NCBI GenBank assembly: GCA_963847705.1
Contig: CAWKBC010000032.1
Location: 224,001 to 288,000 of the forward strand
Direction: 5' to 3'
Length of the DNA stretch: 64,000 nucleotides
From: an uncultured Pseudomonadota bacterium
Lineage (GTDB): Bacteria > Myxococcota_A > Polyangia > Fen-1088
Each line of letters begins with the position of its first letter. Position 1 is the stretch's first letter. Made by a program: the position numbers and the translations under genes. The notes under the pieces are model-generated. The model was not told where the DNA came from and made no database searches. It saw only the letters and a program-made list of their open reading frames with translations. This document shows, in pieces, positions 50,650 through 64,000 of this stretch.

Positions 50650-53600
50650 ATGACTCGGAGGAGAGCTCTGTTCGGCGTCTCGGGGGGAGTCCTGGCGCTC
50701 GCCATCGCCTGGCCGGCCGCCGTCCAGGCCGCCGCCTGCGCCACCACCGCCTGCGGTTCCGCCACCAGCGTGACCTACAACGGCGCGGCCTTGACCTTTG
50801 CCGGCGCTTCGACGAACGGGACGGTGCGCAGCGAGCTCTGGTACCTGGTCGCGCCGACGAGCGGCGTCCACAACGTGGTGGTCACCGCGCCCAACGCCGA
50901 CGCGGTCACCGCCACCTCGATGTCGTTCACCGGCGTCAACCAGACCACCCCCCTCGGCACCACGGTCTCGGCGATCGGCACCGGCACGACCACGTCGGTC
51001 TCCACCACCAGCGCGGTCGGCGAGCCGCTGTTCGACGTCGTCGGCGCCGTCGGAACCACCCCACCGACCGTGGCCGGCGCGACCCAGACCGTTCGCCAGA
51101 CCAACACCACCGCGACCGGCCTCGACCAGGTGGTCCTCGGCTCCAGCACCGCGCCGGGCGCGGGCGCCACGTCGATCAGCATGTCCTGGACCATCCCCAG
51201 CGCCGACTGGGCCCAGATCGCGGTCCCCATCCAGGCCTCCACCGCACTGACCGCCGTCGCGGTGAGCGCTCTGACCGCGACGTTGCAGCCCGACGGCGTG
51301 CTGGTCCAGTGGAGCGATGGCTATGAGCCGTCGTCGCTGGGATTCTACGTCTACCGCAGCGACGGTACCGGAGGCCGCGTCCGGCTGAACGCCTCGGTCA
51401 TCGCCGGCGGCGCGCTCGGCACGGGAGCGTCGTCGTTCTCCTGGAAGGACGCCTCGGCGGGCTGGGACGGCGCGGTGTCGTACTGGGTCGAAGACGTCGG
51501 CCTCGACGGCTCGATGAGCTGGTACGGTCCGGTCACCCCACGACCCGCCGGCGCCATCGACGCAACGGGCGGCGCGGCCGCGAGCTCGTCCGGCGGCGCC
51601 GCCAGCAGCTGGTCCGGCGCGGGCGGCCAGGCGCCGGCAGAATCGGCCGGGGCGGGCGGGTGCACGGTCGCCGCGCGCGATCCGCGCAGCACGCTGCTGC
51701 AGCTGGTGCTGGCGCTCGGCCTGGTCGCCGGCGTGCGGCGGCGGAAGCGGCTCGCCGCGCTGGTCGTCCTCTACGCCCTGGCGGTCGCCGCCAGCGGGCT
51801 GCTTTCGCCCCGGACCGCCGCAGGCGCGGGCGGCGTCGCCGTCGACGCGACCGCCACCGGGTCGGGCGCCAGCGGATTGACCTTCTCGCACACGATGGGC
51901 GCCGGCGCGAACGGGCTCCTGATCGTGGGGGTGGTCGTCCCGATCACCTGCGACGACACCACGACCGACGGGGCCAACTGCGGGGCCTGCGGCACGACCT
52001 GCGCGCAGGATGTCGGAGCTTCGCTCGGCACGGGTCTGCTCGGCCTGTGGCGCTTCGACGAGGGGAGCGGCACCACCTCGGCCGACTCGTCCGGCAACGG
52101 CAACACGGCCACCCTCTTCAACAGCCCGAGCTGGACCACCGGTTACTCCGGCGACGCCGTCGAGGGGAACGGCACCAGCAGCTACGTCGCGGCCAACATC
52201 GGGACCTGGTTCGGGGCGAACAACACCCTGTCGGTCTCCGCCTGGACCTACGTCAACGCCAGCTCCAGCGGCCCGGTGGTCGGGATCGCCGGGACCAACG
52301 GCTGGAACATGCCATTCCTCAGCGTCAACGGCTCGACCGTCTACGGTTGGCTGTGGGGCGTGCCCGGAACCGACCCGGCCAGCAGCCCCCTCGCGGCGAC
52401 GGTCACCCTCGACGCCTGGCACTTCCTGGCCATCACCTACGATCCGAACGGTGGTGGCGCGGGGATCGGCCAGGAGATCTTCTACGTCGACGGCATGGTC
52501 TCCAGCTCGGCCACCGGGACCTACCAGCCGTCTGGAACGAGCGACGTCTTCACCACGCAGATCGCCGGCGCAAAGCCCAACGGAGGCGCCATGGACAGCG
52601 TCCTGCTCGGCAAGGTCGACGAGGTGCGCGCCTACAACCGGACTCTGAGCGCCGCAGACATCACCGCGCTCTACGGCGGGCGGCTCACCTGCGCGGCCAG
52701 CACCTGCGCGGCCTGCTCCGGGGGCCAGACCGCTTGCAGCGGCAGCTGTACCGACACGTCGACCGACATCGACAACTGCGGCGGCTGCGGACACGCCTGC
52801 AACATCGCCGGCGGCGAAACCTGCGTGGGGGGAACTTGCACCTGCACCACCGGCACCGACTGCAGTGGCGTCTGCTCCACCACCTCCAACGATCCCAACA
52901 ACTGCGGTGGCTGTGGCATCGCTTGCGGAATGCCGACCAGCGCCGCCATCGACAGCGGGCTCATCGGGCACTGGAACCTCGATGAGGGGTCCGGCACGAC
53001 CTCGGCCGATTCGTCGGGGAACGGCAACACGGCGACACTCTCCGGCGCGACCTGGACCACAGGCTACTCCGGCGACGCGGTCGCGGGTGACGGCAGCTCT
53101 ACCTACGTGAGCGCCAACCTGGGGAGCTATTTCGGCACCAACGCCGCCCTCACCGCCAGCGCCTGGGTCTACGCCACCGCGACCACCAACGGTCCTGTCT
53201 TCGGCGTCACCTCCATCCCGGCGGGCGGCGGCTGGAACATGCCCTTCCTCAGCATCGCCGGCTCAACCGCTTACGGATGGTTGTGGGGGGTCCCGGGGAT
53301 CGACGGCGGCTCGAGCCCGCTGGCCGCCACCGTCAGCCTCGACGCCTGGCACTTCCTGGCCATCACTTACACGCCGTCGGGAGGGTCAGGGACGGAGAGG
53401 TTCTACGTCGACGGCGCGCTGGCCGGCACCGCGACCGGCGCCTACCAGCCCTCGGGCCAGGTCGACACCTGGTCCACCACCATCCCCGGCGCCAGGCCAA
53501 GCGCCGTCACCAACAGCTTCCTCAACGGCAAGGTTGACGAGGTGCGCGCCTACAGCCGCGCGCTCAGCGCCGCCGAGATCTCGATCCTCTACAACGCCCG

Positions 53601-54657
53601 CCAGACCTGTTCGTCGTCGATCTGCGGCGGCTGCACCGGCGGCGAGTCGCTCTGTGGCGGCGATTGCACCGACAAGACCATCGACGCCAGCAACTGCGGC
53701 GCCTGCGGCACCAGCTGCAACATCTCCGGCGGTGAGAGCTGCATCTCCAGCAGCTGCGGCTGCGCCAGCGGCACCGACTGCAGCACCGTCTGCGTCGACA
53801 CCACCTCCGATCAGAACAACTGCGGCGGCTGCGGCGCCCCCTGCGGCGCTGTCACCTGCGCCTCCTGCGGCAGCGGGATGGCGGGCCTGTGGCACCTCGA
53901 CGAGGGCTCCGGGTCGACGTCGGCCGATTCATCCGGCAACAACCACACCGCCACGCTCAACAGCAGCCCCGGCTGGGTGACGGGCGAGGCGGGCAACGGG
54001 CTGGCGTTCAACGGCACCAGCTACATGACGGCCACGCTGGGAAGCTGGTTCGGCAACAACAACCCCCTCTCCGCCAGCGCCTGGGTCTTCGCCACCTCCA
54101 CCACGAACGGGCCGATCTTCGGCGTCACCGACACCCTGCCGGGGACGAACTGGAACATGCCTTTCCTGAGCATTGCCGGGTCGACCGTCTACGGCTGGCT
54201 CTGGTCGATGGCCAACAACAATCCCCTGTCGGCGACGGTCTCGCTGAACGCCTGGCACCTCCTCACGATCACCTACGATCCGAACGGAGGCGCCGCCGGC
54301 ACCGGCCAGGAGATCTTCTACGTCGACGGCGCGGTGTCGCAGTCCTCGGACATCACCTACTGGCCCTCGGGCAACAGCGACTTCCTCACCACGCAGATCC
54401 AAAACGCCAAGCCGAGCGGCGTGAACAACATTCTGACCGGCACCATCGACGAGCTCCGCGCCTATACCCGCGTCCTCTCGGCGGGTGAGATCGCGCTGCT
54501 CTACAACGCGCGTCAGACCTGCGTGGGCTCCGTCTGCACCGGCTGTCCGACGGGGACCACCAGCTGCGGCGGCGGCGTCTGCCAGAACACCGCCTGCGGT
54601 GCCTGCGGAAGTCCCTGCTCGGGCACCCAGCAGTGCGTCTCCGGCACCTGCATGTAG
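50650..54657 (+). CDS. Large secreted polyprotein-like adhesin: signal peptide, beta domain, C25-associated TAV domain, internal MYXO-CTERM, second signal peptide, three LamG domains with Cys-rich repeats
   Basis: Signal ending AVQA; TAVAVSALTA...GFYVYR...YWVEDVGLDG..WYGPV; GGCTVAA-TM-RRRKR-TM; three W.(F/L)DEGSG.TSADSSGN...(V/I)DE(V/L)RAY.R.LS LamG units. Confidence 0.85.
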   Translation: MTRRRALFGVSGGVLALAIAWPAAVQAAACATTACGSATSVTYNGAALTFAGASTNGTVRSELWYLVAPTSGVHNVVVTAPNADAVTATSMSFTGVNQTTPLGTTVSAIGTGTTTSVSTTSAVGEPLFDVVGAVGTTPPTVAGATQTVRQTNTTATGLDQVVLGSSTAPGAGATSISMSWTIPSADWAQIAVPIQASTALTAVAVSALTATLQPDGVLVQWSDGYEPSSLGFYVYRSDGTGGRVRLNASVIAGGALGTGASSFSWKDASAGWDGAVSYWVEDVGLDGSMSWYGPVTPRPAGAIDATGGAAASSSGGAASSWSGAGGQAPAESAGAGGCTVAARDPRSTLLQLVLALGLVAGVRRRKRLAALVVLYALAVAASGLLSPRTAAGAGGVAVDATATGSGASGLTFSHTMGAGANGLLIVGVVVPITCDDTTTDGANCGACGTTCAQDVGASLGTGLLGLWRFDEGSGTTSADSSGNGNTATLFNSPSWTTGYSGDAVEGNGTSSYVAANIGTWFGANNTLSVSAWTYVNASSSGPVVGIAGTNGWNMPFLSVNGSTVYGWLWGVPGTDPASSPLAATVTLDAWHFLAITYDPNGGGAGIGQEIFYVDGMVSSSATGTYQPSGTSDVFTTQIAGAKPNGGAMDSVLLGKVDEVRAYNRTLSAADITALYGGRLTCAASTCAACSGGQTACSGSCTDTSTDIDNCGGCGHACNIAGGETCVGGTCTCTTGTDCSGVCSTTSNDPNNCGGCGIACGMPTSAAIDSGLIGHWNLDEGSGTTSADSSGNGNTATLSGATWTTGYSGDAVAGDGSSTYVSANLGSYFGTNAALTASAWVYATATTNGPVFGVTSIPAGGGWNMPFLSIAGSTAYGWLWGVPGIDGGSSPLAATVSLDAWHFLAITYTPSGGSGTERFYVDGALAGTATGAYQPSGQVDTWSTTIPGARPSAVTNSFLNGKVDEVRAYSRALSAAEISILYNARQTCSSSICGGCTGGESLCGGDCTDKTIDASNCGACGTSCNISGGESCISSSCGCASGTDCSTVCVDTTSDQNNCGGCGAPCGAVTCASCGSGMAGLWHLDEGSGSTSADSSGNNHTATLNSSPGWVTGEAGNGLAFNGTSYMTATLGSWFGNNNPLSASAWVFATSTTNGPIFGVTDTLPGTNWNMPFLSIAGSTVYGWLWSMANNNPLSATVSLNAWHLLTITYDPNGGAAGTGQEIFYVDGAVSQSSDITYWPSGNSDFLTTQIQNAKPSGVNNILTGTIDELRAYTRVLSAGEIALLYNARQTCVGSVCTGCPTGTTSCGGGVCQNTACGACGSPCSGTQQCVSGTCM

Positions 54658-54697
54658 CGCCGGAGCGTCGCGCTTCAGAAGACGCAGCGCTTCGTCG

Positions 54698-57379
54698 ATG
54701 AGTCTGCAACAGATGCGCACCAATCTCAGGCTCACCAAAGGTCTCGCCTTGCTGGCGATGAGTGGCATGTTCCTGGTTGCCTGCGGCGACGCGTCCCCCG
54801 GAAGCTCGGGCGGCGCCGCCGGCGCCGGCGGTGCCCAGACAGGCGGCGCGGGTGGGTCAGGGACCGGCGGCACGACCGGGACGGGTGGGCTGGCCGGCGG
54901 CTCGGGAGGCGGCAGCGTCGGGACGGGCGGCGGCGGCGGCACGGGCGGGGGCGGCGGCGGCGGCACGGGCGGCGGCGTCGGCACGGGCGGCGGCGTCGGG
55001 TCGGGCGGCGGCGTCGGCACGGGCGGCGTGAGCGGTGCGGCCGGCAGCCAGGCGACCGGCGGCAGCGGCGGCGCGGCCGGGGGCGCGACGGGCGGAGGCA
55101 GCGGTGCTGGCGGTTCGGCGATGGCCGGCGCAGGCGGCGGAACCACGGACGCGGGGGCGGTCGACACCGGAATCGACGTCCCGCCCCCTCCCCCGGCGCC
55201 AGCGACGACCATTCCCACCACCCCGATCGACTTCGGAGCGATCGACTGCGGCGCGGCCGGCGGAACGCTTCCCTTCTCCTTCACCAACACGGGAACCGCC
55301 AGTCTCCATTACCGCGCCGCCATCGATCTGGGCGGCACCTTCTCGCTGCAGGGGGCCGCGGCCGACGGCTCCCTCACCGGCGACGTTGCCCCCGGCTCGA
55401 CCGCACAGCTGACGATCGTGGCCGGGATCATCCCGACGACCAGCGCCGTCGGCGCCGTCCTCACCGGAGCGTTGACGGTGGCGACCAACGCCGCCGGTGC
55501 CGACAACACGCAGATCGCCATCGCCATGACCGCCCAGGGAAGCACCTGCACGCTCACCTGTGGCGCGTTCACCAAGTGTACGCCCAGCAGCGCCTCTCCC
55601 TATTGCGCCAACACGGAGACCGACAACATCAACTGCGGCGCCTGCGGTCACACCTGCGGCACCGGTGAGGTCTGCACCAACGGCAGCTGCGAGCTCACCT
55701 GTGGCGCGCTCACCAAGTGCTCACCGTCGTCCGGCAGCGATTACTGCGCCAACACCACCACCGACAGCAACAACTGCGGTGCCTGCGGCAACGTCTGTGG
55801 CACGGGGCAAGTCTGCAGCGGCGGCGTCTGCACCCTCTCTTGCGGCGCGCTCACCAAGTGCTCGCCGTCGACGGGCGCCCCCTATTGCGCCAACACGCTG
55901 ACCGACAACGCCAACTGCGGCACCTGCGGCAACCCCTGCACCGGCGCCGACGTCTGCTCGAACGGCGTCTGTACGCTCACCTGCGGCGCGCTCACCACCT
56001 GCGCTCCCACCAGCGGCGCCCCCTACTGCGCCAACACGCTGACCGACAACGCCAACTGCGGCACCTGCGGCAATCCCTGCACCGGCGCCGACGTCTGCAC
56101 CAACGGCGTCTGCACCATCGCCTGCGGCGCGCTCTCGACCTGCACGCCGTCGAGCAGCGCCCCCTACTGCGCCAACTTCGCCACCGACAACGCCAACTGC
56201 GGCAGCTGCGGCAACGTCTGCGGCGCCGGCCAGGTCTGCAGCGGCGGCGGCTGCACGCTCACCTGCGGCGCGCTCTCGAAGTGCACCCCCACGAGCGGCA
56301 CCCCCTACTGCGCCAACTTCGCCACCGATACCGCCAACTGCGGCAGCTGCGGCAACGTCTGCGGCGCCGGCCAATCCTGCATGGGCGGCGTCTGCCAGGC
56401 CAACTGCTCGGGGAGCGAGACGGCCTGCGGCGGGTTGTGCACCAACACCTCGTTCGATCCGAGCAACTGCGGCGCCTGCGGCAACGGCTGTGCGTTCGCG
56501 CAGGGCTCCGCGGCCTGCGCCGGTGGGGGGTGCTTCCTCACCGCCTGCAACGCCGGCTACGCCGACTGCAACCACGCCCAGTCGGACGGCTGCGAGACCA
56601 ACACCGACAGCGACGCCGCCAACTGCGGCGCCTGCGGCAAGTCCTGCGCGCTCGGGGAGACCTGCGTCTCGGCCGTCTGCACCGCCAACCTCTCGCAAGG
56701 GCTCATCGGCTACTGGAAGATGGACGACGCCCCGGGCTCGACCAAGGCCGCCGACAGCGGCCCCAACAACCTCCCCGGGTTCGTCCAGGGGAACGTCACC
56801 TTCCTTCCCACGGCCGGCAAGCAAGGCTCGGGCGCGATCTCCCTGGCGGGCAGCGGCTACATCCGCGTCCCCTTCCCCAACAACGCCATCAACCAAGGGA
56901 CCGGCATCGCCATCCCGCAGGGAAACATGACCTTCTCGATGTGGTTCAAGACCAACACCACGGGCCCGGGCGGCTTGCAGGTCGTGGAGGGGAACGCAGC
57001 CTGGGGCTCGGGCTACGATCGCGTGGTGGGCAGCGGAACCGGCTCGACGTTGCAGTACAACGCTTGGCACGAGGTCAACATGACAGGGGTCGTGACCGTC
57101 AACGACGGCAACTGGCACCTCATGACCTACGTCCTCGACGAGTCGAACGGCTTCCTGACCTATATCGACGGCAGCCCCGACGCCAGCTCTTCGACGCTGA
57201 CCGACAATTGCGGCGAAGGGTGCAGCGGCTTCAACTGGGCCGCGGAGTACTGGATCGGCACCGGTGCCGACGGCCGTTTCAGCGCCGGCAACTTCAGTGG
57301 CCTCATCGACGACGTGCGCATGTACAACCACGTCCTTTCGCCGGCCGCGGTGATGCAGCTCTACAACGCCACCAAGTAG
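54698..57379 (+). CDS. Lipoprotein with Gly-rich linker, Ig-like domain, about eight Cys-rich (D..NCG.CG) repeats and a C-terminal LamG domain
   Basis: LVAC lipobox; six repeats at a 120-bp period; GLIGYWKMDD...GLIDDVRMYNHVLS. Confidence 0.85.
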   Translation: MSLQQMRTNLRLTKGLALLAMSGMFLVACGDASPGSSGGAAGAGGAQTGGAGGSGTGGTTGTGGLAGGSGGGSVGTGGGGGTGGGGGGGTGGGVGTGGGVGSGGGVGTGGVSGAAGSQATGGSGGAAGGATGGGSGAGGSAMAGAGGGTTDAGAVDTGIDVPPPPPAPATTIPTTPIDFGAIDCGAAGGTLPFSFTNTGTASLHYRAAIDLGGTFSLQGAAADGSLTGDVAPGSTAQLTIVAGIIPTTSAVGAVLTGALTVATNAAGADNTQIAIAMTAQGSTCTLTCGAFTKCTPSSASPYCANTETDNINCGACGHTCGTGEVCTNGSCELTCGALTKCSPSSGSDYCANTTTDSNNCGACGNVCGTGQVCSGGVCTLSCGALTKCSPSTGAPYCANTLTDNANCGTCGNPCTGADVCSNGVCTLTCGALTTCAPTSGAPYCANTLTDNANCGTCGNPCTGADVCTNGVCTIACGALSTCTPSSSAPYCANFATDNANCGSCGNVCGAGQVCSGGGCTLTCGALSKCTPTSGTPYCANFATDTANCGSCGNVCGAGQSCMGGVCQANCSGSETACGGLCTNTSFDPSNCGACGNGCAFAQGSAACAGGGCFLTACNAGYADCNHAQSDGCETNTDSDAANCGACGKSCALGETCVSAVCTANLSQGLIGYWKMDDAPGSTKAADSGPNNLPGFVQGNVTFLPTAGKQGSGAISLAGSGYIRVPFPNNAINQGTGIAIPQGNMTFSMWFKTNTTGPGGLQVVEGNAAWGSGYDRVVGSGTGSTLQYNAWHEVNMTGVVTVNDGNWHLMTYVLDESNGFLTYIDGSPDASSSTLTDNCGEGCSGFNWAAEYWIGTGADGRFSAGNFSGLIDDVRMYNHVLSPAAVMQLYNATK

Positions 57380-58117: not shown

Positions 58118-58439
58118 CGAGCGAGAGCTCCGCGTGGCTTGGCCACGCGGAGCGGAGGGGGACCGGGCAGAGCGAGCACAGCGTGACGGACGGGGATGCG
58201 AGCGCAGCGTGGCGGACGGGAGAGCGAGCGCAGCGTGGCGGACGCGAGAGCGAGCGCAGCGTGGCGGACGCGAGAGCGAGCGCAGCGTGGCTCTGCCACG
58301 CGGAGCGAGGGGGGACCGGGGGGTGCGAGCGGCAGCGAGCCGCCCCCCGTAAAATCAAAGGGGTGCGAGCGGCAGCGAGCCGCCCCCCGTAAAATCAAAG
58401 GGGTGCGAGCGGCAGCGAGCCACCCCCCGTAAAATCAAA
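58118..58439. repeat. Composite intergenic REP-like element: 11-bp hairpin, 26-bp unit x3.5, 40-bp unit x3
   Basis: CTCCGCGTGGC-ttg-GCCACGCGGAG near 58128; GCGAGCGCAGCGTGGCGGACGCGAGA at 58198-58291; GGGGTGCGAGCGGCAGCGAGCCGCCCCCCGTAAAATCAAA at 58320-58439. Confidence 0.85.
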
Positions 58440-59052
58440 GCACGAAGTTGACCAGCAGCTTCTCCTCGCCGCGCAGAAGCTCGGTCGGGAACCGCCACTT
58501 CTTGAGATGACTGCTGTAACAGTGGCGGACGTCTCGGGCCGCACCGTCGGCGCCCAGGATCTGCACCAGCTCGACGGCGCCGTTGGCGCCAATCTCGAAG
58601 GCGGCGCCGAGCTCGAGCGGTGGGCCGCGATCGGGATCGTCGAGGCACTCGCGCAGCTCGGGTGCCCGCTCGGCGGCGAAGGCGCGCAACGCCTTCGTGC
58701 GCTCCCCCTCTTCGAGCGGCTTCCCGGCGGGCAGCGGCGTGAGCGCCGCAAGGGCGGCGCGCCCCACCTTGCCATGCCGCGCGACGTGCGACGCGCCGAT
58801 GGCGCCGCCGCCGCCGCTCGCCGCCGGCGGCGCGACGCAGGCGACCGTGGGGGGACAGACGGCGGGCGGCGTGGTGACCGCGGGAACCGCGCGCCTCAGA
58901 GCCAGCAGGTAGCCGGCGCCGCCGCCGGCTGCGAGCAGCAGGAGGGCCAGCGCCGCCAGCGCCGGCCCGCGCGGTCGACCGCCCCCGCGCCGGCCCGGCG
59001 CGCCGCCGCCGGAATGGCGCAACCAGGCGGGGAGATCGGCGGAGGGTGCCAT
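58435..59052 (-). CDS. Single-TM protein with a C-terminal AgmX/PglI (TonB-C-like) domain
   Basis: TM ALAALALLLLAAGGGAGYLL; ELRECL...AFEIGANGAVELV...VRHC....KKWRFP. Confidence 0.6.
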   Translation of the reverse strand: MAPSADLPAWLRHSGGGAPGRRGGGRPRGPALAALALLLLAAGGGAGYLLALRRAVPAVTTPPAVCPPTVACVAPPAASGGGGAIGASHVARHGKVGRAALAALTPLPAGKPLEEGERTKALRAFAAERAPELRECLDDPDRGPPLELGAAFEIGANGAVELVQILGADGAARDVRHCYSSHLKKWRFPTELLRGEEKLLVNFVL

Positions 59053-59072
59053 GGCGTGTCTGCGTCGATCGC

Positions 59073-60152
59073 TCAGTGGCTCGTCGCCAGCGTGGCGACG
59101 CTGCTGCCGAGCTGCTGGATGGCGGCGGCCGGCATCGAACCGATGAGCTGGCAGAAATCGGCGCTCTGCCCGGTGCCGGGATTGGCGGCGTTGAGCGCCG
59201 CCATGAGTGGCGTGAAGTAGAGGTTCGGCGACGGGCCGATGTCGTCGAGCACGTTGAGCGGGAACCCCGTCACCGCTTTGCACTTGGCCTCGAAGTCGGT
59301 CTGGCTCTGCCCTTCGGCGGTGGCGATCGCCACCTGCACCACCTGCGACGGCGAGATGCTGGTGCCGCTCGAGAACGAGAGCCAGGTGACGCCGCCGGAG
59401 GCGTCGGTGTCGAGGAAGATGTCCGTGGGCGAGCGGCCGTTGACGTTGCAAGCGTCGCTCGGCAGCGCGCAGCGCCGGGCGACCGGCTGCAGGTAGACGA
59501 CGATGAACAGATCGCGGGGGCTGTCGAAGAAGGCGCTGCGATCGATCCCACCCTGCCCCGCCGGCAGCGCGGCCGAGTCGAGGCCCTGCCCGAAGCCGAT
59601 CAGGTTTTTCGCCTCGCAGGACTGGCCGTCGCCGTCGAAGTTCCCCGATCCGGCCAGGATCTGCAGCGCCAGCGGCAGGTCGGCGTCGTCGATGTTCGCC
59701 AGCGTCGGCGCGATGATCGGCAGCAGGCTCTGGTAGTTGCTGAGCCCCGCGTCTGCCCCCAGGAGGCCCAGCAGCGCCAGCGCAGGGGGGAGCGACTGGC
59801 TGGAGCTCGAGCCCTGGCGGCCGAGCAGCAGCCGCGGCCCGAACTCGTCACCGTAGGTCGAGATGAGCCCCATGTTCGCGATCGAGAGCCCCCGCGAGCC
59901 CAGGTAGTTCATGAAGCCGGTCATGATCCCGGCGTACTGGTTGGAGAGGTTCACCGAGGTTCGCGCGAGGTTGGCGACGAAGAGGATGCTCGCCGTCAAG
60001 GGAGGTGGCTGCGGCAGCGCGTCGGGGCGGACGGGAAACGGGACCGGGATGTAGATCTTCTTGGTCATCCCGCCGTCGGGGCTGGCGGGCGTGATGATCG
60101 TGCAACCGGCCCCCGCCAGCACCAGAATCAAGAGGAGCGATCGGGTCTTCAT
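59073..60152 (-). CDS. Lipoprotein with a degenerate vWA-like fold
   Basis: GAGC lipobox; SILFVANL...F..YL....MGLIST resembles the vWA beta1-alpha1-beta2 region without a MIDAS; ATGA overlap with the upstream gene. Confidence 0.6.
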   Translation of the reverse strand: MKTRSLLLILVLAGAGCTIITPASPDGGMTKKIYIPVPFPVRPDALPQPPPLTASILFVANLARTSVNLSNQYAGIMTGFMNYLGSRGLSIANMGLISTYGDEFGPRLLLGRQGSSSSQSLPPALALLGLLGADAGLSNYQSLLPIIAPTLANIDDADLPLALQILAGSGNFDGDGQSCEAKNLIGFGQGLDSAALPAGQGGIDRSAFFDSPRDLFIVVYLQPVARRCALPSDACNVNGRSPTDIFLDTDASGGVTWLSFSSGTSISPSQVVQVAIATAEGQSQTDFEAKCKAVTGFPLNVLDDIGPSPNLYFTPLMAALNAANPGTGQSADFCQLIGSMPAAAIQQLGSSVATLATSH

Positions 60153-61957
60153 AGTGCCACCATCTTTCCCTTGTCCTTCGCCGTCGCGGAGCCACTGCCG
60201 GACTTTCCACTCTCGGCGTGCGACGTTTGGGGCGCCTGCAGGCCACGGGCGCGCAGCGTCTGTCGCAGCGCCGCGTAGAGCGCGCGGCGGGCCTCGGCCG
60301 TCTCGCGCGGCGTCGGCGTGACGACCAGCGAGAGATCCTCCTCCAGCGCCGCGGCCACCGTCCGTGGCAGCGTGGAGAGCGTGCGCGAGGCGACCGTCGC
60401 CGAAGCGGTGCGCAGAAAGCGCGCCAGGATCTCCGTCGGGACCCCCACCACCGTGGCCCCGAGCACCTCCTCGGAGACCAGCTCGAACGACTGCTCGGTG
60501 ATGAGCGCGGCCTCGATCGCGCGCGCCTTGACCGGATCGGCGCGCCGCATGGCGTCCAGGATCTCGGCCTGCTCGTCCATCGGCCGCTCCTCGACCAGCT
60601 CCACCGCCAGATCGATGTCGCCGGTCTGGCCCGAGTCGAGGTGGGCCTGTTCGATGGCCCGCGCCCGCAACGTGGCCGCCACGTCGAGCAGGTGCTCCTT
60701 CGAGAGCGACTTGGGAGAGGCGATGGCCGCCGCCAGCGCCGCGCGCTCGCCGGTGGAGCGCGACTCGAGATAGGTCGAACGCAGATGGGCGGGCGCGTAG
60801 CGCAGCGCCGCCGCCCGCACGCTGGGCGGCTCGGGGTCGAGCACCGCGGCCAGCCGCGCCGGCGACACGCCGAGCAGAAACGCGAACTCCTGCTCGACCG
60901 GATCGTCGGCGCCGACCATCCGGTGTTTGAGGATGCGCCGGTGCAGCTGGTCGACGATCTCGCGCGTGTCCGAGCGGGGCCGTCCGTCGACGAGCAGCGC
61001 AGCGGCCTCGCGCAACGCCGAGGCGCAGGCCGGATCGCCGCGGAGATCCTCCACCACGCCGGGGCCGATGAGCTCGACGGCGACGGCGACCTTTTCGATC
61101 TGGTTCTCGCGCAGGAGCTCCCCCATCACGCGCCGGGCCAGCACCCGATCCTCGCGCAGGGCGCGCCGCACCTCGGGGAGATGATCGACCGCCGCCGGCA
61201 GCGCGCCGGCACCGGAGGCCTCGCCGCGCCGATCGGGGGCGGTCCCCTGCTGGATGTTGCGCCGGGCGCGCCGGTCGGCGAGCGCGCTCAGCAGCGCAAA
61301 GCCGAGCGCCCCGATGAGCAGGCCCAGGACGCCGAGCGCGATGGCCACCACCCAGGGGATTCCATGCGTCCCGTTGTCGACGGCCGGCGCGGGCGGCGGC
61401 GGGGGGATCGGGTACGGCTGCGGCGCCGGCTGCTCCCGCTCACGCTGCGGCGCCGGCTGGGGCGGGGGCGGATAGGCGTAGGGAGACATCTCACGCTGTT
61501 GCGGCTGAGGCCGCGGCGTCGGAAAGGCGATCACGCTCTCGGTGATCTCGACGGGAACGTCGAGCATGTCGAGCTTGCTCTTGAGGAGGTTCTTGAGGTC
61601 CTTGCGAAACTGGGCGGGGAGCTTGGCGTCGAGCGTCACCGCCACCTCGACCCGCTCCGCCACGAACTCGGTCCCGGGCGTCAGCTCCTCGAAGCCGGGC
61701 GCCGCGCCGGCCGGCAGCGCCGTGGGGCGATTGACCCGGACGTCGACGTACTTGAGCTCGGCCTGGCCGGGCGCCATCTCCTCCAGCACCGGGGCGATGC
61801 GCCGCGTGACCTCATCGCGCACGTTCGCTTCCAGCAGCTGCGCGTCGTTGCCGAACGGTGGTCGCCGCTCCGCGCGCGCGGAGCCCGCCGCCAACAGGGT
61901 CGCCAGCGCCACCGCGGCCGCCCCCATCCCGGTTCTCATATGAATGATGCGCTTCAT
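60149..61957 (-). CDS. FliF-like (RBM3 + TM + C-tail)-FliG fusion protein (putative rotor)
   Basis: Signal peptide; RRIAPVLEE...ERVEVAVTLD...LKNLL; TM; REDRVLARRVM; EKVAVAVELIG (FliG-N); FAFL...EPPSV (FliG-M); DPVKARAIE...LPRTVAAALEEDL (FliG-C). Confidence 0.7.
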   Translation of the reverse strand: MKRIIHMRTGMGAAAVALATLLAAGSARAERRPPFGNDAQLLEANVRDEVTRRIAPVLEEMAPGQAELKYVDVRVNRPTALPAGAAPGFEELTPGTEFVAERVEVAVTLDAKLPAQFRKDLKNLLKSKLDMLDVPVEITESVIAFPTPRPQPQQREMSPYAYPPPPQPAPQREREQPAPQPYPIPPPPPAPAVDNGTHGIPWVVAIALGVLGLLIGALGFALLSALADRRARRNIQQGTAPDRRGEASGAGALPAAVDHLPEVRRALREDRVLARRVMGELLRENQIEKVAVAVELIGPGVVEDLRGDPACASALREAAALLVDGRPRSDTREIVDQLHRRILKHRMVGADDPVEQEFAFLLGVSPARLAAVLDPEPPSVRAAALRYAPAHLRSTYLESRSTGERAALAAAIASPKSLSKEHLLDVAATLRARAIEQAHLDSGQTGDIDLAVELVEERPMDEQAEILDAMRRADPVKARAIEAALITEQSFELVSEEVLGATVVGVPTEILARFLRTASATVASRTLSTLPRTVAAALEEDLSLVVTPTPRETAEARRALYAALRQTLRARGLQAPQTSHAESGKSGSGSATAKDKGKMVAL

Positions 61958-61971
61958 GAAACCACTCCCAG

Positions 61972-62685
61972 CTAGTGGACCCTAATCACGACCCTGCGAT
62001 TTTCGCTGCGGGCGCGCGTCTGCGCGGAGGCATCGCCCTGCACGGGCGTGGCCGGCCGCGTGTCGGCGTATCCCTGGGCGGAGAGTCGCTGCGGACTGAC
62101 CCCCGCCGCGGTGAAGGACTTGAGCACGTTGATCGCCCGCGCCGAGGAGAGCTCCCAGTTCGAGTCGAACCGGCCCGTGTGGATCGGGACATCGTCGGTG
62201 TGCCCCTCGATGGCGATCTGGTAGCGGTTGTCGATGGTGGGGAGCAGCTTCCCCACCCGATCGATCGCCGCGCGCCCGGTCGGCGTGATGTCGGCCTGGC
62301 CGCTGTCGAACAGCAGCGCATTCTTCAGCTCCATGCGCAGCCCCTCGTCGTCGACGACGGTCTTCACCTGCTGGGTCAGCCCCTGCGCCGCGATCACCGC
62401 GTCGATCTTCTCCTTCAGCACGTCGAGCGAGGGCGGCGGTGCCTGATGCGAGATCGCCGCGGAGACCATCTCGAACTTGCGCAGGTTCACCTTCGACATG
62501 GCCAGCGCCAGGATCAGAAACGCCAGCAACAGGCTGACCACGTCGACGTAGGGGATGAGCCAGGAGGTGTCGTCCTCCTCGCCGTAGGCCAGCAGATCGC
62601 TGGCATCGGGGCCCCGGCTGGGGCTGGCCTTGGCGGAGCGCTTGGCGCCGCCGCCGGGCCCGCCGCCGGTCTCGAGGCCGATCAC
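61972..62685 (-). CDS. motB: MotB family stator protein (TM with conserved Asp, plug, OmpA-like PG-binding domain)
   Basis: WLIPYVD..SLLLAF; LLFDSG; IEGHTD; NWELSSARA; GYADTRP; NRRV; GTGA overlap with the motA stop. Confidence 0.9.
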   Translation of the reverse strand: MIGLETGGGPGGGAKRSAKASPSRGPDASDLLAYGEEDDTSWLIPYVDVVSLLLAFLILALAMSKVNLRKFEMVSAAISHQAPPPSLDVLKEKIDAVIAAQGLTQQVKTVVDDEGLRMELKNALLFDSGQADITPTGRAAIDRVGKLLPTIDNRYQIAIEGHTDDVPIHTGRFDSNWELSSARAINVLKSFTAAGVSPQRLSAQGYADTRPATPVQGDASAQTRARSENRRVVIRVH

Positions 62686-63443
62686 GCGGCCTCCGCGGCG
62701 GAGGGGGCACCGCCGCCCGCGCCGGCCAAGAGGCGCAGGTCGTAGAGCGACCGCCCCTCGGCGATGCTGGTGAGCCCGCGCTCGAGCAGGCGCGCCGACA
62801 CCGAGAGGTTGCGTCCGTAGTTCTCGATCCGCTTGGCGAACGGCGACCAGATCGCATACGCCAGGATGAGGCCGTAGAACGTCGCCAGCTGCGCCACCGC
62901 CATCGCCGGGCCCAGCTGCTCGAAGTTCTTCAGGTTGATGAGCATGTTCACGAGGCCAACGATGGTCCCCATCAGGCCGACGGCCGGCGTGGTGCGGGCC
63001 AGAAAGCGGAACACCTCCTCCGCCTCTTTGACCTGCGACAGGCGCGCGTACGACAGCGTCAGCACGGTCTCGCGCGCATCGGCGCCGCCGCCCGGCTGGA
63101 GCAACAACGGACCGACCTCGCGCAGCAGCGGATCCTCGGCCTCGGCGAGCACCTTGGAGGCCTCGACCGTTCGCCCCTGCTTGAGCTCGCGGCCGAACCG
63201 ATAGAGATCGGCGATCATGCGCGACTCGGCCCGCCGCGCGTTGTAGCGCAGCGCCTGGGCCAGGGTCACCACGCCGCGCCAGATCTCGCGCACGTCGTGC
63301 CCCACCAGCAGGATCGACGGCGGCGCCCCCAGCAAGAGGATGAGCGCGGCCGGGTGAAAGAAGCCGGTGAACCCGTTCGGCATGTGGCTGCGCGTGGAGA
63401 CCAGCGTCGCCCACAATCCCGCCAGCCCGATGATGATGTGCAT
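62682..63443 (-). CDS. motA: MotA family stator protein
   Basis: PAALILLLG; DPLL; PAVGLMGTIVGLVNML..L; LGPAMAVA..ATFYG; PFAKRI. Confidence 0.88.
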   Translation of the reverse strand: MHIIIGLAGLWATLVSTRSHMPNGFTGFFHPAALILLLGAPPSILLVGHDVREIWRGVVTLAQALRYNARRAESRMIADLYRFGRELKQGRTVEASKVLAEAEDPLLREVGPLLLQPGGGADARETVLTLSYARLSQVKEAEEVFRFLARTTPAVGLMGTIVGLVNMLINLKNFEQLGPAMAVAQLATFYGLILAYAIWSPFAKRIENYGRNLSVSARLLERGLTSIAEGRSLYDLRLLAGAGGGAPSAAEAA

Positions 63444-63452
63444 CTTCCCTTT

Positions 63453-64000
63453 CTACTTTCCGAGGCGCTGAAGCGCCTCCAGCACCGCGAGGTTGAAGGG
63501 GTTCAGCCGCAGGGCTTCTTGCCAGGCTTCCCGCGCCAGGTTCTTGTTGCCGAGGCGCTCGTAAAGGGACCCCTTCATCGAGAGGATGTGCTCGTCTTCG
63601 GGGTACTGCCTCTCGAGATCGACCAGCTCCACCAGCCCCAGCTCGTAATGGCGCGTGCGATAGAGATCCTTCACCCGCGCCAGCGTCAGCAGATAGCTCG
63701 CCTTCGCCGCAGGCGGCGTCCCGGCCGCGCCCGGGACCTTGTCGCCCGGCCGCGCGGTCCTCTGTGCCAGACTCCGGTTGGCGTCGCGGTCGGTCGGATG
63801 GGCCGCCCCCTCGTCGACCGCGTCGTCCGGGCCGGGAGCATCGCTCTTGGCGCGCTCGGCGGCCGCCATGTTGTCGGCCATGATCTCGCGATCGGCGGCG
63901 GTCGCCGTGGCCATGTCGATGGACATGGGCGCCGCCGGCTTCCCGCTGAGTGGAACCTTGACCTCGTAGGCGGTCGCGATCTCCGGGAGCTGAATCTCCC
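63453..64000 (-). CDS. TPR-containing protein; 5' end lies outside the window
   Basis: Frame open to the window edge; LSMKGSLYERLG..NLAREAWQEALRLNP. Confidence 0.75.
   Translation of the reverse strand, partial: EIQLPEIATAYEVKVPLSGKPAAPMSIDMATATAADREIMADNMAAAERAKSDAPGPDDAVDEGAAHPTDRDANRSLAQRTARPGDKVPGAAGTPPAAKASYLLTLARVKDLYRTRHYELGLVELVDLERQYPEDEHILSMKGSLYERLGNKNLAREAWQEALRLNPFNLAVLEALQRLGK

Follow-up and report, generated by a model that had tools for sequence, protein, structure and literature searches.

An operon at the end of a 64,000-nucleotide stretch of the genome of an uncultured bacterium of the Polyangia (genome G000, 6.1 Mb, 84.7% complete and 6% contaminated; the stretch, C32:224001-288000, is hereafter the window) combines a flagellar-type stator, MotA and MotB, with gene I, a protein of 602 amino acid (aa) residues that carries the M and C domains of FliG, and with eight further partner genes that are not known from flagella. 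It is neither a flagellum nor an Agl-Glt system; it is built from the flagellar torque generator. With slightly more confidence than doubt, we read it as a switchless ion-driven ring motor that moves an outer-membrane adhesion platform. A wider formulation, held at somewhat under even confidence, is that a self-sufficient three-gene rotary engine (MotA, MotB and a FliF/FliG rotor) drives a Sec-built outer-membrane adhesion platform and not a filament, in about a tenth of the sampled Myxococcota and in at least two operon types. As far as is known, the stator's other relatives (ExbBD, TolQR, AglRQS and ZorAB) do without FliG. Here, the flagellar-type stator and FliG stay paired outside the flagellum, under selection and with envelope partners of their own. 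No description of the operon was found in the literature searched, subscription journals lying outside its scope; MotAB or FliG homologues of this kind may appear, without comment, in the supplements of PMC12505986 and PMC12199754.

Operon and one-piece rotor candidate

The operon comprises 11 genes in the order A-B-C-D-E-F-motA-motB-I-J-K, all on the minus strand. Genes A to E lie outside the window and were added by gene calling past its end; they share the strand and overlap or are separated by small gaps. Gene F runs from window position 63453 to beyond 64000 (C32:287453-288223), its start lying 223 bases past the window end. It is followed by motA after 9 nt; motA and motB overlap by GTGA, motB and gene I are 14 nt apart, genes I and J overlap by ATGA, and 20 nt separate J from K. 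An initial annotation of the window alone had described six such genes and had foreseen that the operon runs on. All six open reading frames (ORFs) are in place with the junctions it gave, the continuation upstream is real, and the five further genes correct the count to 11.

Gene I (60149-61957) is the candidate one-piece rotor. From its N-terminus it consists of a signal peptide, an RBM3-like domain (residues 36-146; 61520-61852), a proline-rich linker, one membrane helix (residues 200-228, 61274-61360, by its hydrophobic segment; helix 202-237 in the model), FliF-C-like helices, a helical FliG-N-like stretch, and the FliG M and C domains (residues 345-575; 60233-60925). The domains come in the order of FliF's C-terminal half with FliG after it. 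Exactly one internal hydrophobic segment was present in all of 15 orthologues, and here there is a single periplasmic domain. The ratio of nonsynonymous to synonymous substitution rates (dN/dS) was 0.13-0.27 in 3/3 pairs, indicating purifying selection.

The FliG part is established by both sequence profile and structure. The Pfam family FliG_C matched over its cut-off at residues 469-567, and a profile of 53 gene I sequences aligned with residues 104-323 of the Aquifex FliG at E 6e-25. The AlphaFold2 model (mean predicted local distance difference test score, pLDDT, 82.8) begins with a helix that reads as a signal peptide, followed by an alpha-beta-beta-alpha-beta domain at residues 36-143. 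Foldseek ranked FliG first for this model (7e-8), before FliF (4.5e-3) and OsmC (2.9e-2), and VIA superimposed it on FliG-C with Z 13.8 (root-mean-square deviation, rmsd, 1.8; 89 residues aligned) and on FliG-M with Z 11.5 (rmsd 1.6; 80 aligned). The structural likeness to FliG on which the initial annotation had staked its rotor is thus present. Over a longer range, VIA aligned gene I 285-573 with Salmonella FliG 5-321 at rmsd 17.5.

Likeness to FliF is partial. VIA aligned residues 36-146 with the RBM3 domain of FliF at Z 10.9 and 10.4 (rmsd 2.7-2.9; 95-97 aligned), which predicts an RBM3-like fold; the corresponding profile comparison was weak, with a match near FliF residues 233-261 at E 0.035. 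Residues 254-287 aligned with the FliG-binding C-terminal helices of FliF from the phylum (hhalign probability 41%, E 3e-4). YscJ_FliF gave no match in gene I and RBM1-2 are absent; the signal peptide replaces them together with the first membrane helix of FliF. A complex prediction with four copies of the RBM3-like domain scored 0.26 against a mark of 0.42, which is evidence neither way. The one-protein FliF-FliG rotor proposed at the outset therefore stands in its FliG M and C domains; as regards FliF, it extends no further than the C-terminal half, with the predicted RBM3-like domain and the C-terminal helices.

Compared with the flagellar motor core, the shared elements are MotA, a MotB with plug, aspartate and wall-binding domain, the FliG M and C domains, a charge pair of the R90/D289 type, and the predicted RBM3-like domain, membrane helix and FliF-C-like helices of gene I in FliF order. 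In contrast, gene I is one polypeptide with a signal peptide, without RBM1-2 and without a first membrane helix, and the operon lacks FliM/FliN, the EHPQ motif, a rod, a hook, a filament, a linked export gate and the E98/R281 charge pair. A ring-building and a FliG domain in one membrane protein are also found in engineered Vibrio FliF-FliG fusions, which form rings (PMC10941966; PDB 8z4d). A natural FliF-FliG fusion of the Chlamydiaceae, described for a non-flagellated bacterium, keeps RBM2 but no RBM3, spans the membrane with two helices, retains FliG-M as its sole FliG domain, and measures about 330 aa (10.1101/023564). Gene I differs from it in its RBM3-like domain, its single helix, its FliG M and C domains and its adjacent motAB; the available text on Chlamydia mentions no stator. 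Full-length natural fusions of 858-859 aa, with YscJ_FliF, YscJ_FliF_C and FliG_N, M and C all over cut-off, were seen at L048:7994-10573 (genome G355) and L049:7851-10427 (genome G280), in the flagellar clusters of two genomes that also have the operon.

Stator and occurrence apart from flagella

MotA (62682-63443, 253 aa) is a stator A subunit of the flagellar type. It matched Pfam MotA_ExbB at 1.7e-15, and its best NCBIfam models were PomA, MotP and MotA (1e-19 to 1e-10), those of TolQ and ExbB reaching 1e-4. Against solved structures, a profile of 15 sequences found MotA/PomA at E 1e-35 to 5e-16, but ExbB/TolQ no better than 5e-6. In a phylogenetic tree the operon MotA groups with flagellar MotA against TolQ-like sequences (support 100/99), and it is the only MotA-type protein among the 12 MotA_ExbB matches of the genome; the other 11 genes are TolQ/ExbB-like by our reading of their neighbours. 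MotB (61972-62685, 237 aa) contains MotB_plug and OmpA domains, both over the Pfam cut-off. Its ion-binding aspartate and peptidoglycan-binding domain, noted earlier from the window, were borne out: the aspartate is kept in 28/28 orthologues, and the OmpA-type domain is the wall-binding one. For motA and motB dN/dS was 0.08-0.09 (8 pairs over motA, motB, I and J). A single origin of all operon MotAs was considered and not adopted: the tree needs two changes and has long branches, and one clade is neither shown nor rejected (approximately unbiased test, p-AU 0.63). Among the orthologous loci, motA and motB form one 457-aa frame in genome G160 (L052:7969-9342), and motB is split around a run of N in genome G049 (L038:8222-9201); either may be an assembly error.

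No match to Flagellin_N or to the rod/hook family Flg_bbr_C was obtained in the 84.7%-complete genome, and no second FliG: gene I provides its only FliG_C match. The sole FliMN_C match is SctQ-like. Type III secretion system (T3SS)-type genes occur at four scattered places far from the operon (C29:307063-309036, C32:431301-432122, C32:99091-101129 and C32:532157-536466), which hold an orphan sctV, a sctQ, a 261-aa SctJ-like gene beside a sigma factor, and a block of fliO-like, sctR, sctS, sctT and sctU genes. A flagellar identity of the FHIPEP, FliP, YscJ and FliMN_C matches was rejected, as NCBIfam names two SctV and SctQ and the genome has no rod, hook or flagellin. Such a set of genes is what the needleless T3SS of the phylum (PMC11509652) would lead one to expect. 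The statement of the initial annotation that no flagellar set accompanies the operon thus extends from the window to the upstream region and to the genome as far as flagellin, rod/hook and a second FliG are concerned, and no complete set was found in either; it needs amending for the export gate, of which T3SS-type genes are present elsewhere.

These T3SS genes invite the explanation that the basal body is split, gene I acting with needleless T3SS parts (SctJ giving RBM1-2, with SctRSTUV and SctQ) as a motor-coupled secretion machine. The genome has SctV, SctQ, the SctJ-like protein and the sctRSTU-like block with its fliO-like gene, their domains complement those of gene I, and the Chlamydia fusion has been proposed to work with the T3SS of that bacterium (10.1101/023564). 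Distance argues against it, as do the loss of the FliM/SctQ-binding EHPQ motif and the fact that the operon supplies exported partners of its own; we regard a split basal body as quite improbable.

Across the phylum, full-type gene I orthologues were counted in 400 other genomes, the other listed matches being FliG-sized or partial; they occur in 24, of which 22 belong to family f21 and 2 to family f65. These distant orthologues are 23-30% identical. Flagellar genes were sought in 29 genomes, namely the 24 carriers, three carriers of a second operon type and two non-carriers, the last five all flagellated. Flagellin and rod/hook were both absent from 19 of the 24 distant carriers, 13 of these 19 being at least 90% complete, and both present in the remaining five. 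Among 60 relatives, gene E was found in 23 (20/25 within the genus, 1/11 in other genera of the family and 2/24 beyond). Flagellin was present in 2/23 of these close carriers (absent in 21/23) versus 9/11 of the other genera of the family, 38 of the 60 having been searched. This contrast opposes one genus to most others and comes close to a single event, and we do not treat it as a correlation between operon and flagella. A separate motA lies elsewhere in 5/5 flagellated carriers tested, and those five form a branch of their own (98/92). The independence from the flagellum that had been surmised from one window hence holds across both sets of carriers. Flagellin_N matched 20 times in the fusion-bearing genome G355 and 25 times in G280, and several of these matches fall within open frames of 1,300-2,300 residues.

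When species genomes were scanned with gene E, 37 loci emerged, under the titles Polyangia, Myxococcales, Bradymonadales and others. The order A to K was complete in 20 of them; 16 showed it as far as their contigs reached, and one was rearranged. About ten of these contigs had also been used in building the profiles. The rearranged locus (L085) reads E-F-motA-motB-I-J-K, then A-B-C, and its MotA sits on a long branch. The cultured Lujinxingia vulgaris TMQ2 carries the operon (L065), and its genome is one of five searched in which no flagellin match exceeded the cut-off. Gene F had matches in 47/401 genomes of the phylum; 24 were strong, and the other 23 scored like those of the second operon type. 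This type (L045-L047), likewise of 11 genes, keeps F, motA, motB and homologues of gene I (96%) and gene E (97%), but its remaining partners and flanking genes are different; gene K was not detected in it, and the three carriers tested are all flagellated. Likeness of further second-type genes to A, B/D and C, suspected by eye, was unsupported by comparison of profiles, which here comprise three sequences and link only I and E. Longer gene I homologues (680-970 aa) repeat the periplasmic domain, and no plasmid match was found for a long homologue. In one subgroup (L091-L110) long two-repeat rotors lie among housekeeping genes, by eye L,D-transpeptidase-like, DsbA-like, RluA-like and MinD-like.

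The operon might instead be a flagellar relic or accessory: genes that outlasted the loss of the flagellum, or an extra stator set that serves an unassembled cluster of flagellar genes. The incompleteness of the genome (84.7%), the flagellin in 9/11 other genera of the family and the flagellated state of all three second-type carriers tested would fit this. It is largely refuted, and we hold it very improbable: the operon genes are under purifying selection, the operon is intact and conserved with eight partner genes unknown in flagella, it coexists with a separate flagellar motA in 5/5 genomes, and flagellin is absent from near-complete carriers and from the genome of the cultured strain.

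Envelope partners, interface and mechanism

Gene F is a TPR lipoprotein of 256 aa with TPR matches and a lipobox at Cys31, a cysteine that is nearly invariant. Gene A (C32:293351-295171) encodes a cysteine-rich probable lipoprotein, gene C (C32:290482-292566) a protein of 694 aa and gene D (C32:289655-290485) a predicted small barrel; A, C and D gave no family match at cut-off. Gene B (C32:292563-293354) is a barrel of the TIGR04565 type (42-61 bits, cut-off 60), a model presumably linked to the GltA/H barrels. Gene E (C32:288229-289671) combines an LpoB/CsgG/TolB_N-like domain with a predicted barrel; its look-alikes in the Atlas, taken as a lead, fall into LpoB/CsgG/TolB_N and barrel families and into unnamed clusters of Myxococcota and Bdellovibrionota. 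Gene J (59073-60152) is a lipoprotein of 359 aa with a predicted von Willebrand A (vWA) fold (model pLDDT 83). The top Foldseek rows were vWA and integrin I domains, none reaching E 0.001, and the best VIA row was an integrin I-domain (Z 12.3, rmsd 3.6, 185 aligned). Profile search gave no solved relative by sequence for E and J, and dN/dS of J was 0.33-0.54. Judging by its model, J is possibly an adhesin-like vWA lipoprotein that would form an outer-membrane platform with the barrels. Gene K (58435-59052, 205 aa) has one membrane helix, a proline-rich linker and an AgmX/PglI (TonB-C-like) tail at residues 122-204, matched by NF033768 at E 5.9e-6 and 26 bits, below the cut-off of 40. The SxxxH motif, which we take to be that of TonB/TolA helices, was found in none of 25 gene K helices.

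This set of parts resembles the outer end of the Agl-Glt gliding machinery of Myxococcus (AglRQS, GltA/B/H, GltG/J and CglB), in which the barrels GltA/B/H hold the vWA lipoprotein CglB (PMC9946355). There, and by prediction in the operon as well, an ion motor is linked to TPR proteins, to a TonB-C-like membrane protein, and at the outer membrane to barrels and a vWA lipoprotein (PMC9946355, PMC13104615). They differ in that the motor of the operon is MotAB and not the TolQR-type AglRQS, in the FliG rotor candidate, and in that the genome holds separate Glt-like clusters; no NCBIfam match at cut-off to Glt/Cgl families, the GltD/E/F/G models included, was obtained for the operon partners. In the type IX secretion and gliding machinery of Bacteroidota, GldLM-GldKN, an ion-driven 5:2 motor is proposed to drive an adhesin-carrying belt (PMC13104615). 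There too surface adhesins would be the load of an ion-driven motor, but the proteins are not homologous; in Bacteroidota the outer membrane holds the driven part, whereas the candidate ring of the operon is in the inner membrane and would be driven from the cytoplasm. From the Ton/Tol energisers the operon differs in its A subunit, which is not of the ExbB/TolQ type, and in the lack of SxxxH in gene K.

The residues at which a stator meets FliG were compared in E. coli numbering, mapped through the FliG and MotA profile alignments with known motifs. The MotA R90 position is Arg or Lys in 34/34 sequences (K88 in the operon MotA), and the FliG D289 position is Asp or Glu in 29/29 locus sequences and 51/53 of a wider set (D541 in gene I). 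The FliM-binding EHPQ motif is not conserved in 53 gene I sequences and was seen in 6/8 flagellar FliG controls; with this motif lost, no switch is expected. 

In the mechanism that we favour, gene I would be inserted by Sec, and its RBM3-like and FliG domains would let it oligomerise into a ring of the MS/C type. MotA5B2 units anchored to the wall may engage FliG-C, presumably through the R90/D289-type pair, and turn this ring in one direction; rotation would be one-way because there is no FliM/FliN partner or EHPQ motif. The periplasmic F, C and E and the TonB-C-like K could pass the motion on to the barrels B, D and E, and the lipoproteins J and A, presumably at the surface, would be moved or tensioned along with them. 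Such a machine may help cells to attach to surfaces, to move over them or to contact prey.

Several results weigh against this mechanism. The MotA E98 position is acidic in just 3/34 sequences (S96 in the operon MotA), and the FliG R281 position is Arg in 1/29 locus sequences and 17/53 of the wider set (T533 in gene I), while flagellar controls of the same phylum retain both (E98 in 5/5 MotA, R281 in 8/8 FliG). The non-ring C-terminal domain of the CDF protein MamB ties with the RBM3 match (VIA Z 9.9, 83 aligned), FliG-N had no profile match in gene I residues 255-350, and gene J has no conserved metal ion-dependent adhesion site (MIDAS). No axle or rod candidate was identified. FliM/FliN have been suggested to be necessary for a stable FliG ring (PMC10941966), and both are absent here. 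Neither motA/motB nor a partner lies beside the long rotor gene in 20/20 metagenome loci of the subgroup L091-L110, which span 1.5-22 kb, three of them having at least 8 kb on each side; this speaks against stator and rotor being in fixed linkage in the lineage concerned. Lastly, GltG/F/E/D-like clusters and an AglRQS-like triplet lie, by our reading by eye, at C23:65194-70025, C30:49622-62374 and C17:77639-79396, so that the operon would be an additional machine, not needed as a gliding motor.

Of the two pairs, R90-D289 has been tied to the positioning of the stator, and torque has been ascribed more to E98-R281 (PMC4030992). The matched retention and matched loss suggest, as far as aligned residues tell, that both proteins still meet at an altered interface. 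The pattern also leaves room for a non-rotating scaffold, in which gene I docks and activates MotA/MotB without turning and the stators pull envelope parts in a Ton/Tol/Agl-like manner via gene K. Such a scaffold would agree with the kept positioning pair and the lost torque pair (PMC4030992), with the helix, linker and TonB-C-like domain of gene K, with the TIGR04565-type barrel B and with the missing rod. It is at odds with the absence of SxxxH in 25/25 gene K helices, with a flagellar-type MotA and a wall-anchored MotB that are not of the ExbB/TolQ type, and with the retention of complete FliG M and C domains under selection. We judge it unlikely, if deserving of attention. The reduced torque interface would likewise suit an envelope sensor or defence device, in which stator and rotor report the state of membrane or surface or serve as a Zorya-type ion motor. 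Patchy occurrence (47/401 genomes) points the same way, and MotAB-like parts do serve phage defence in ZorAB (PMC12505986). However, no signalling, nuclease or helicase family was matched in any of the 11 operon genes, the partners are mostly exported or at the outer membrane, and their order is fixed over deep divergence, which makes a sensor or defence device improbable.

The self-contained ion-driven rotor coupled to the envelope that was initially proposed is accordingly upheld in its parts, its conservation and its independence from the flagellum, and qualified by the partial likeness to FliF and the loss of one of two charge pairs. If our reading of a rotating ring motor is true, the operon would encode the first non-flagellar machine driven via FliG. 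It would then offer a natural, minimal model for how stator and rotor gear together, and would be a candidate for a new way in which predatory bacteria move over surfaces or handle prey. It provides a case for the question, raised in PMC12199754, of the role of rotor proteins in filament-less genomes. As the smallest natural stator-rotor set it lends itself to reconstitution, and with Lujinxingia vulgaris TMQ2 as a cultured carrier it is testable.

Transcripts and neighbouring sequence

No sigma-70 promoter-like site was found at the operon, and terminator-like sites occurred only at chance level. Long ORFs on the opposite strand across the operon were rejected as genes on codon bias. One metatranscriptome contained 0.05 of the words, and RNA contigs were short pieces of relatives, 87% of them running on unlike; neither was used as evidence of expression. 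Directly after the operon lies a repeat with a period of 26 nt (58166-58295), and three near-identical 40-nt copies occupy 58320-58439, the last of which overlaps gene K's stop. Beyond these, on the strand opposite to the operon (50650-57379), two large exported proteins of 1335 and 888 aa are encoded, which by eye contain cysteine-rich repeats and LamG-like domains.

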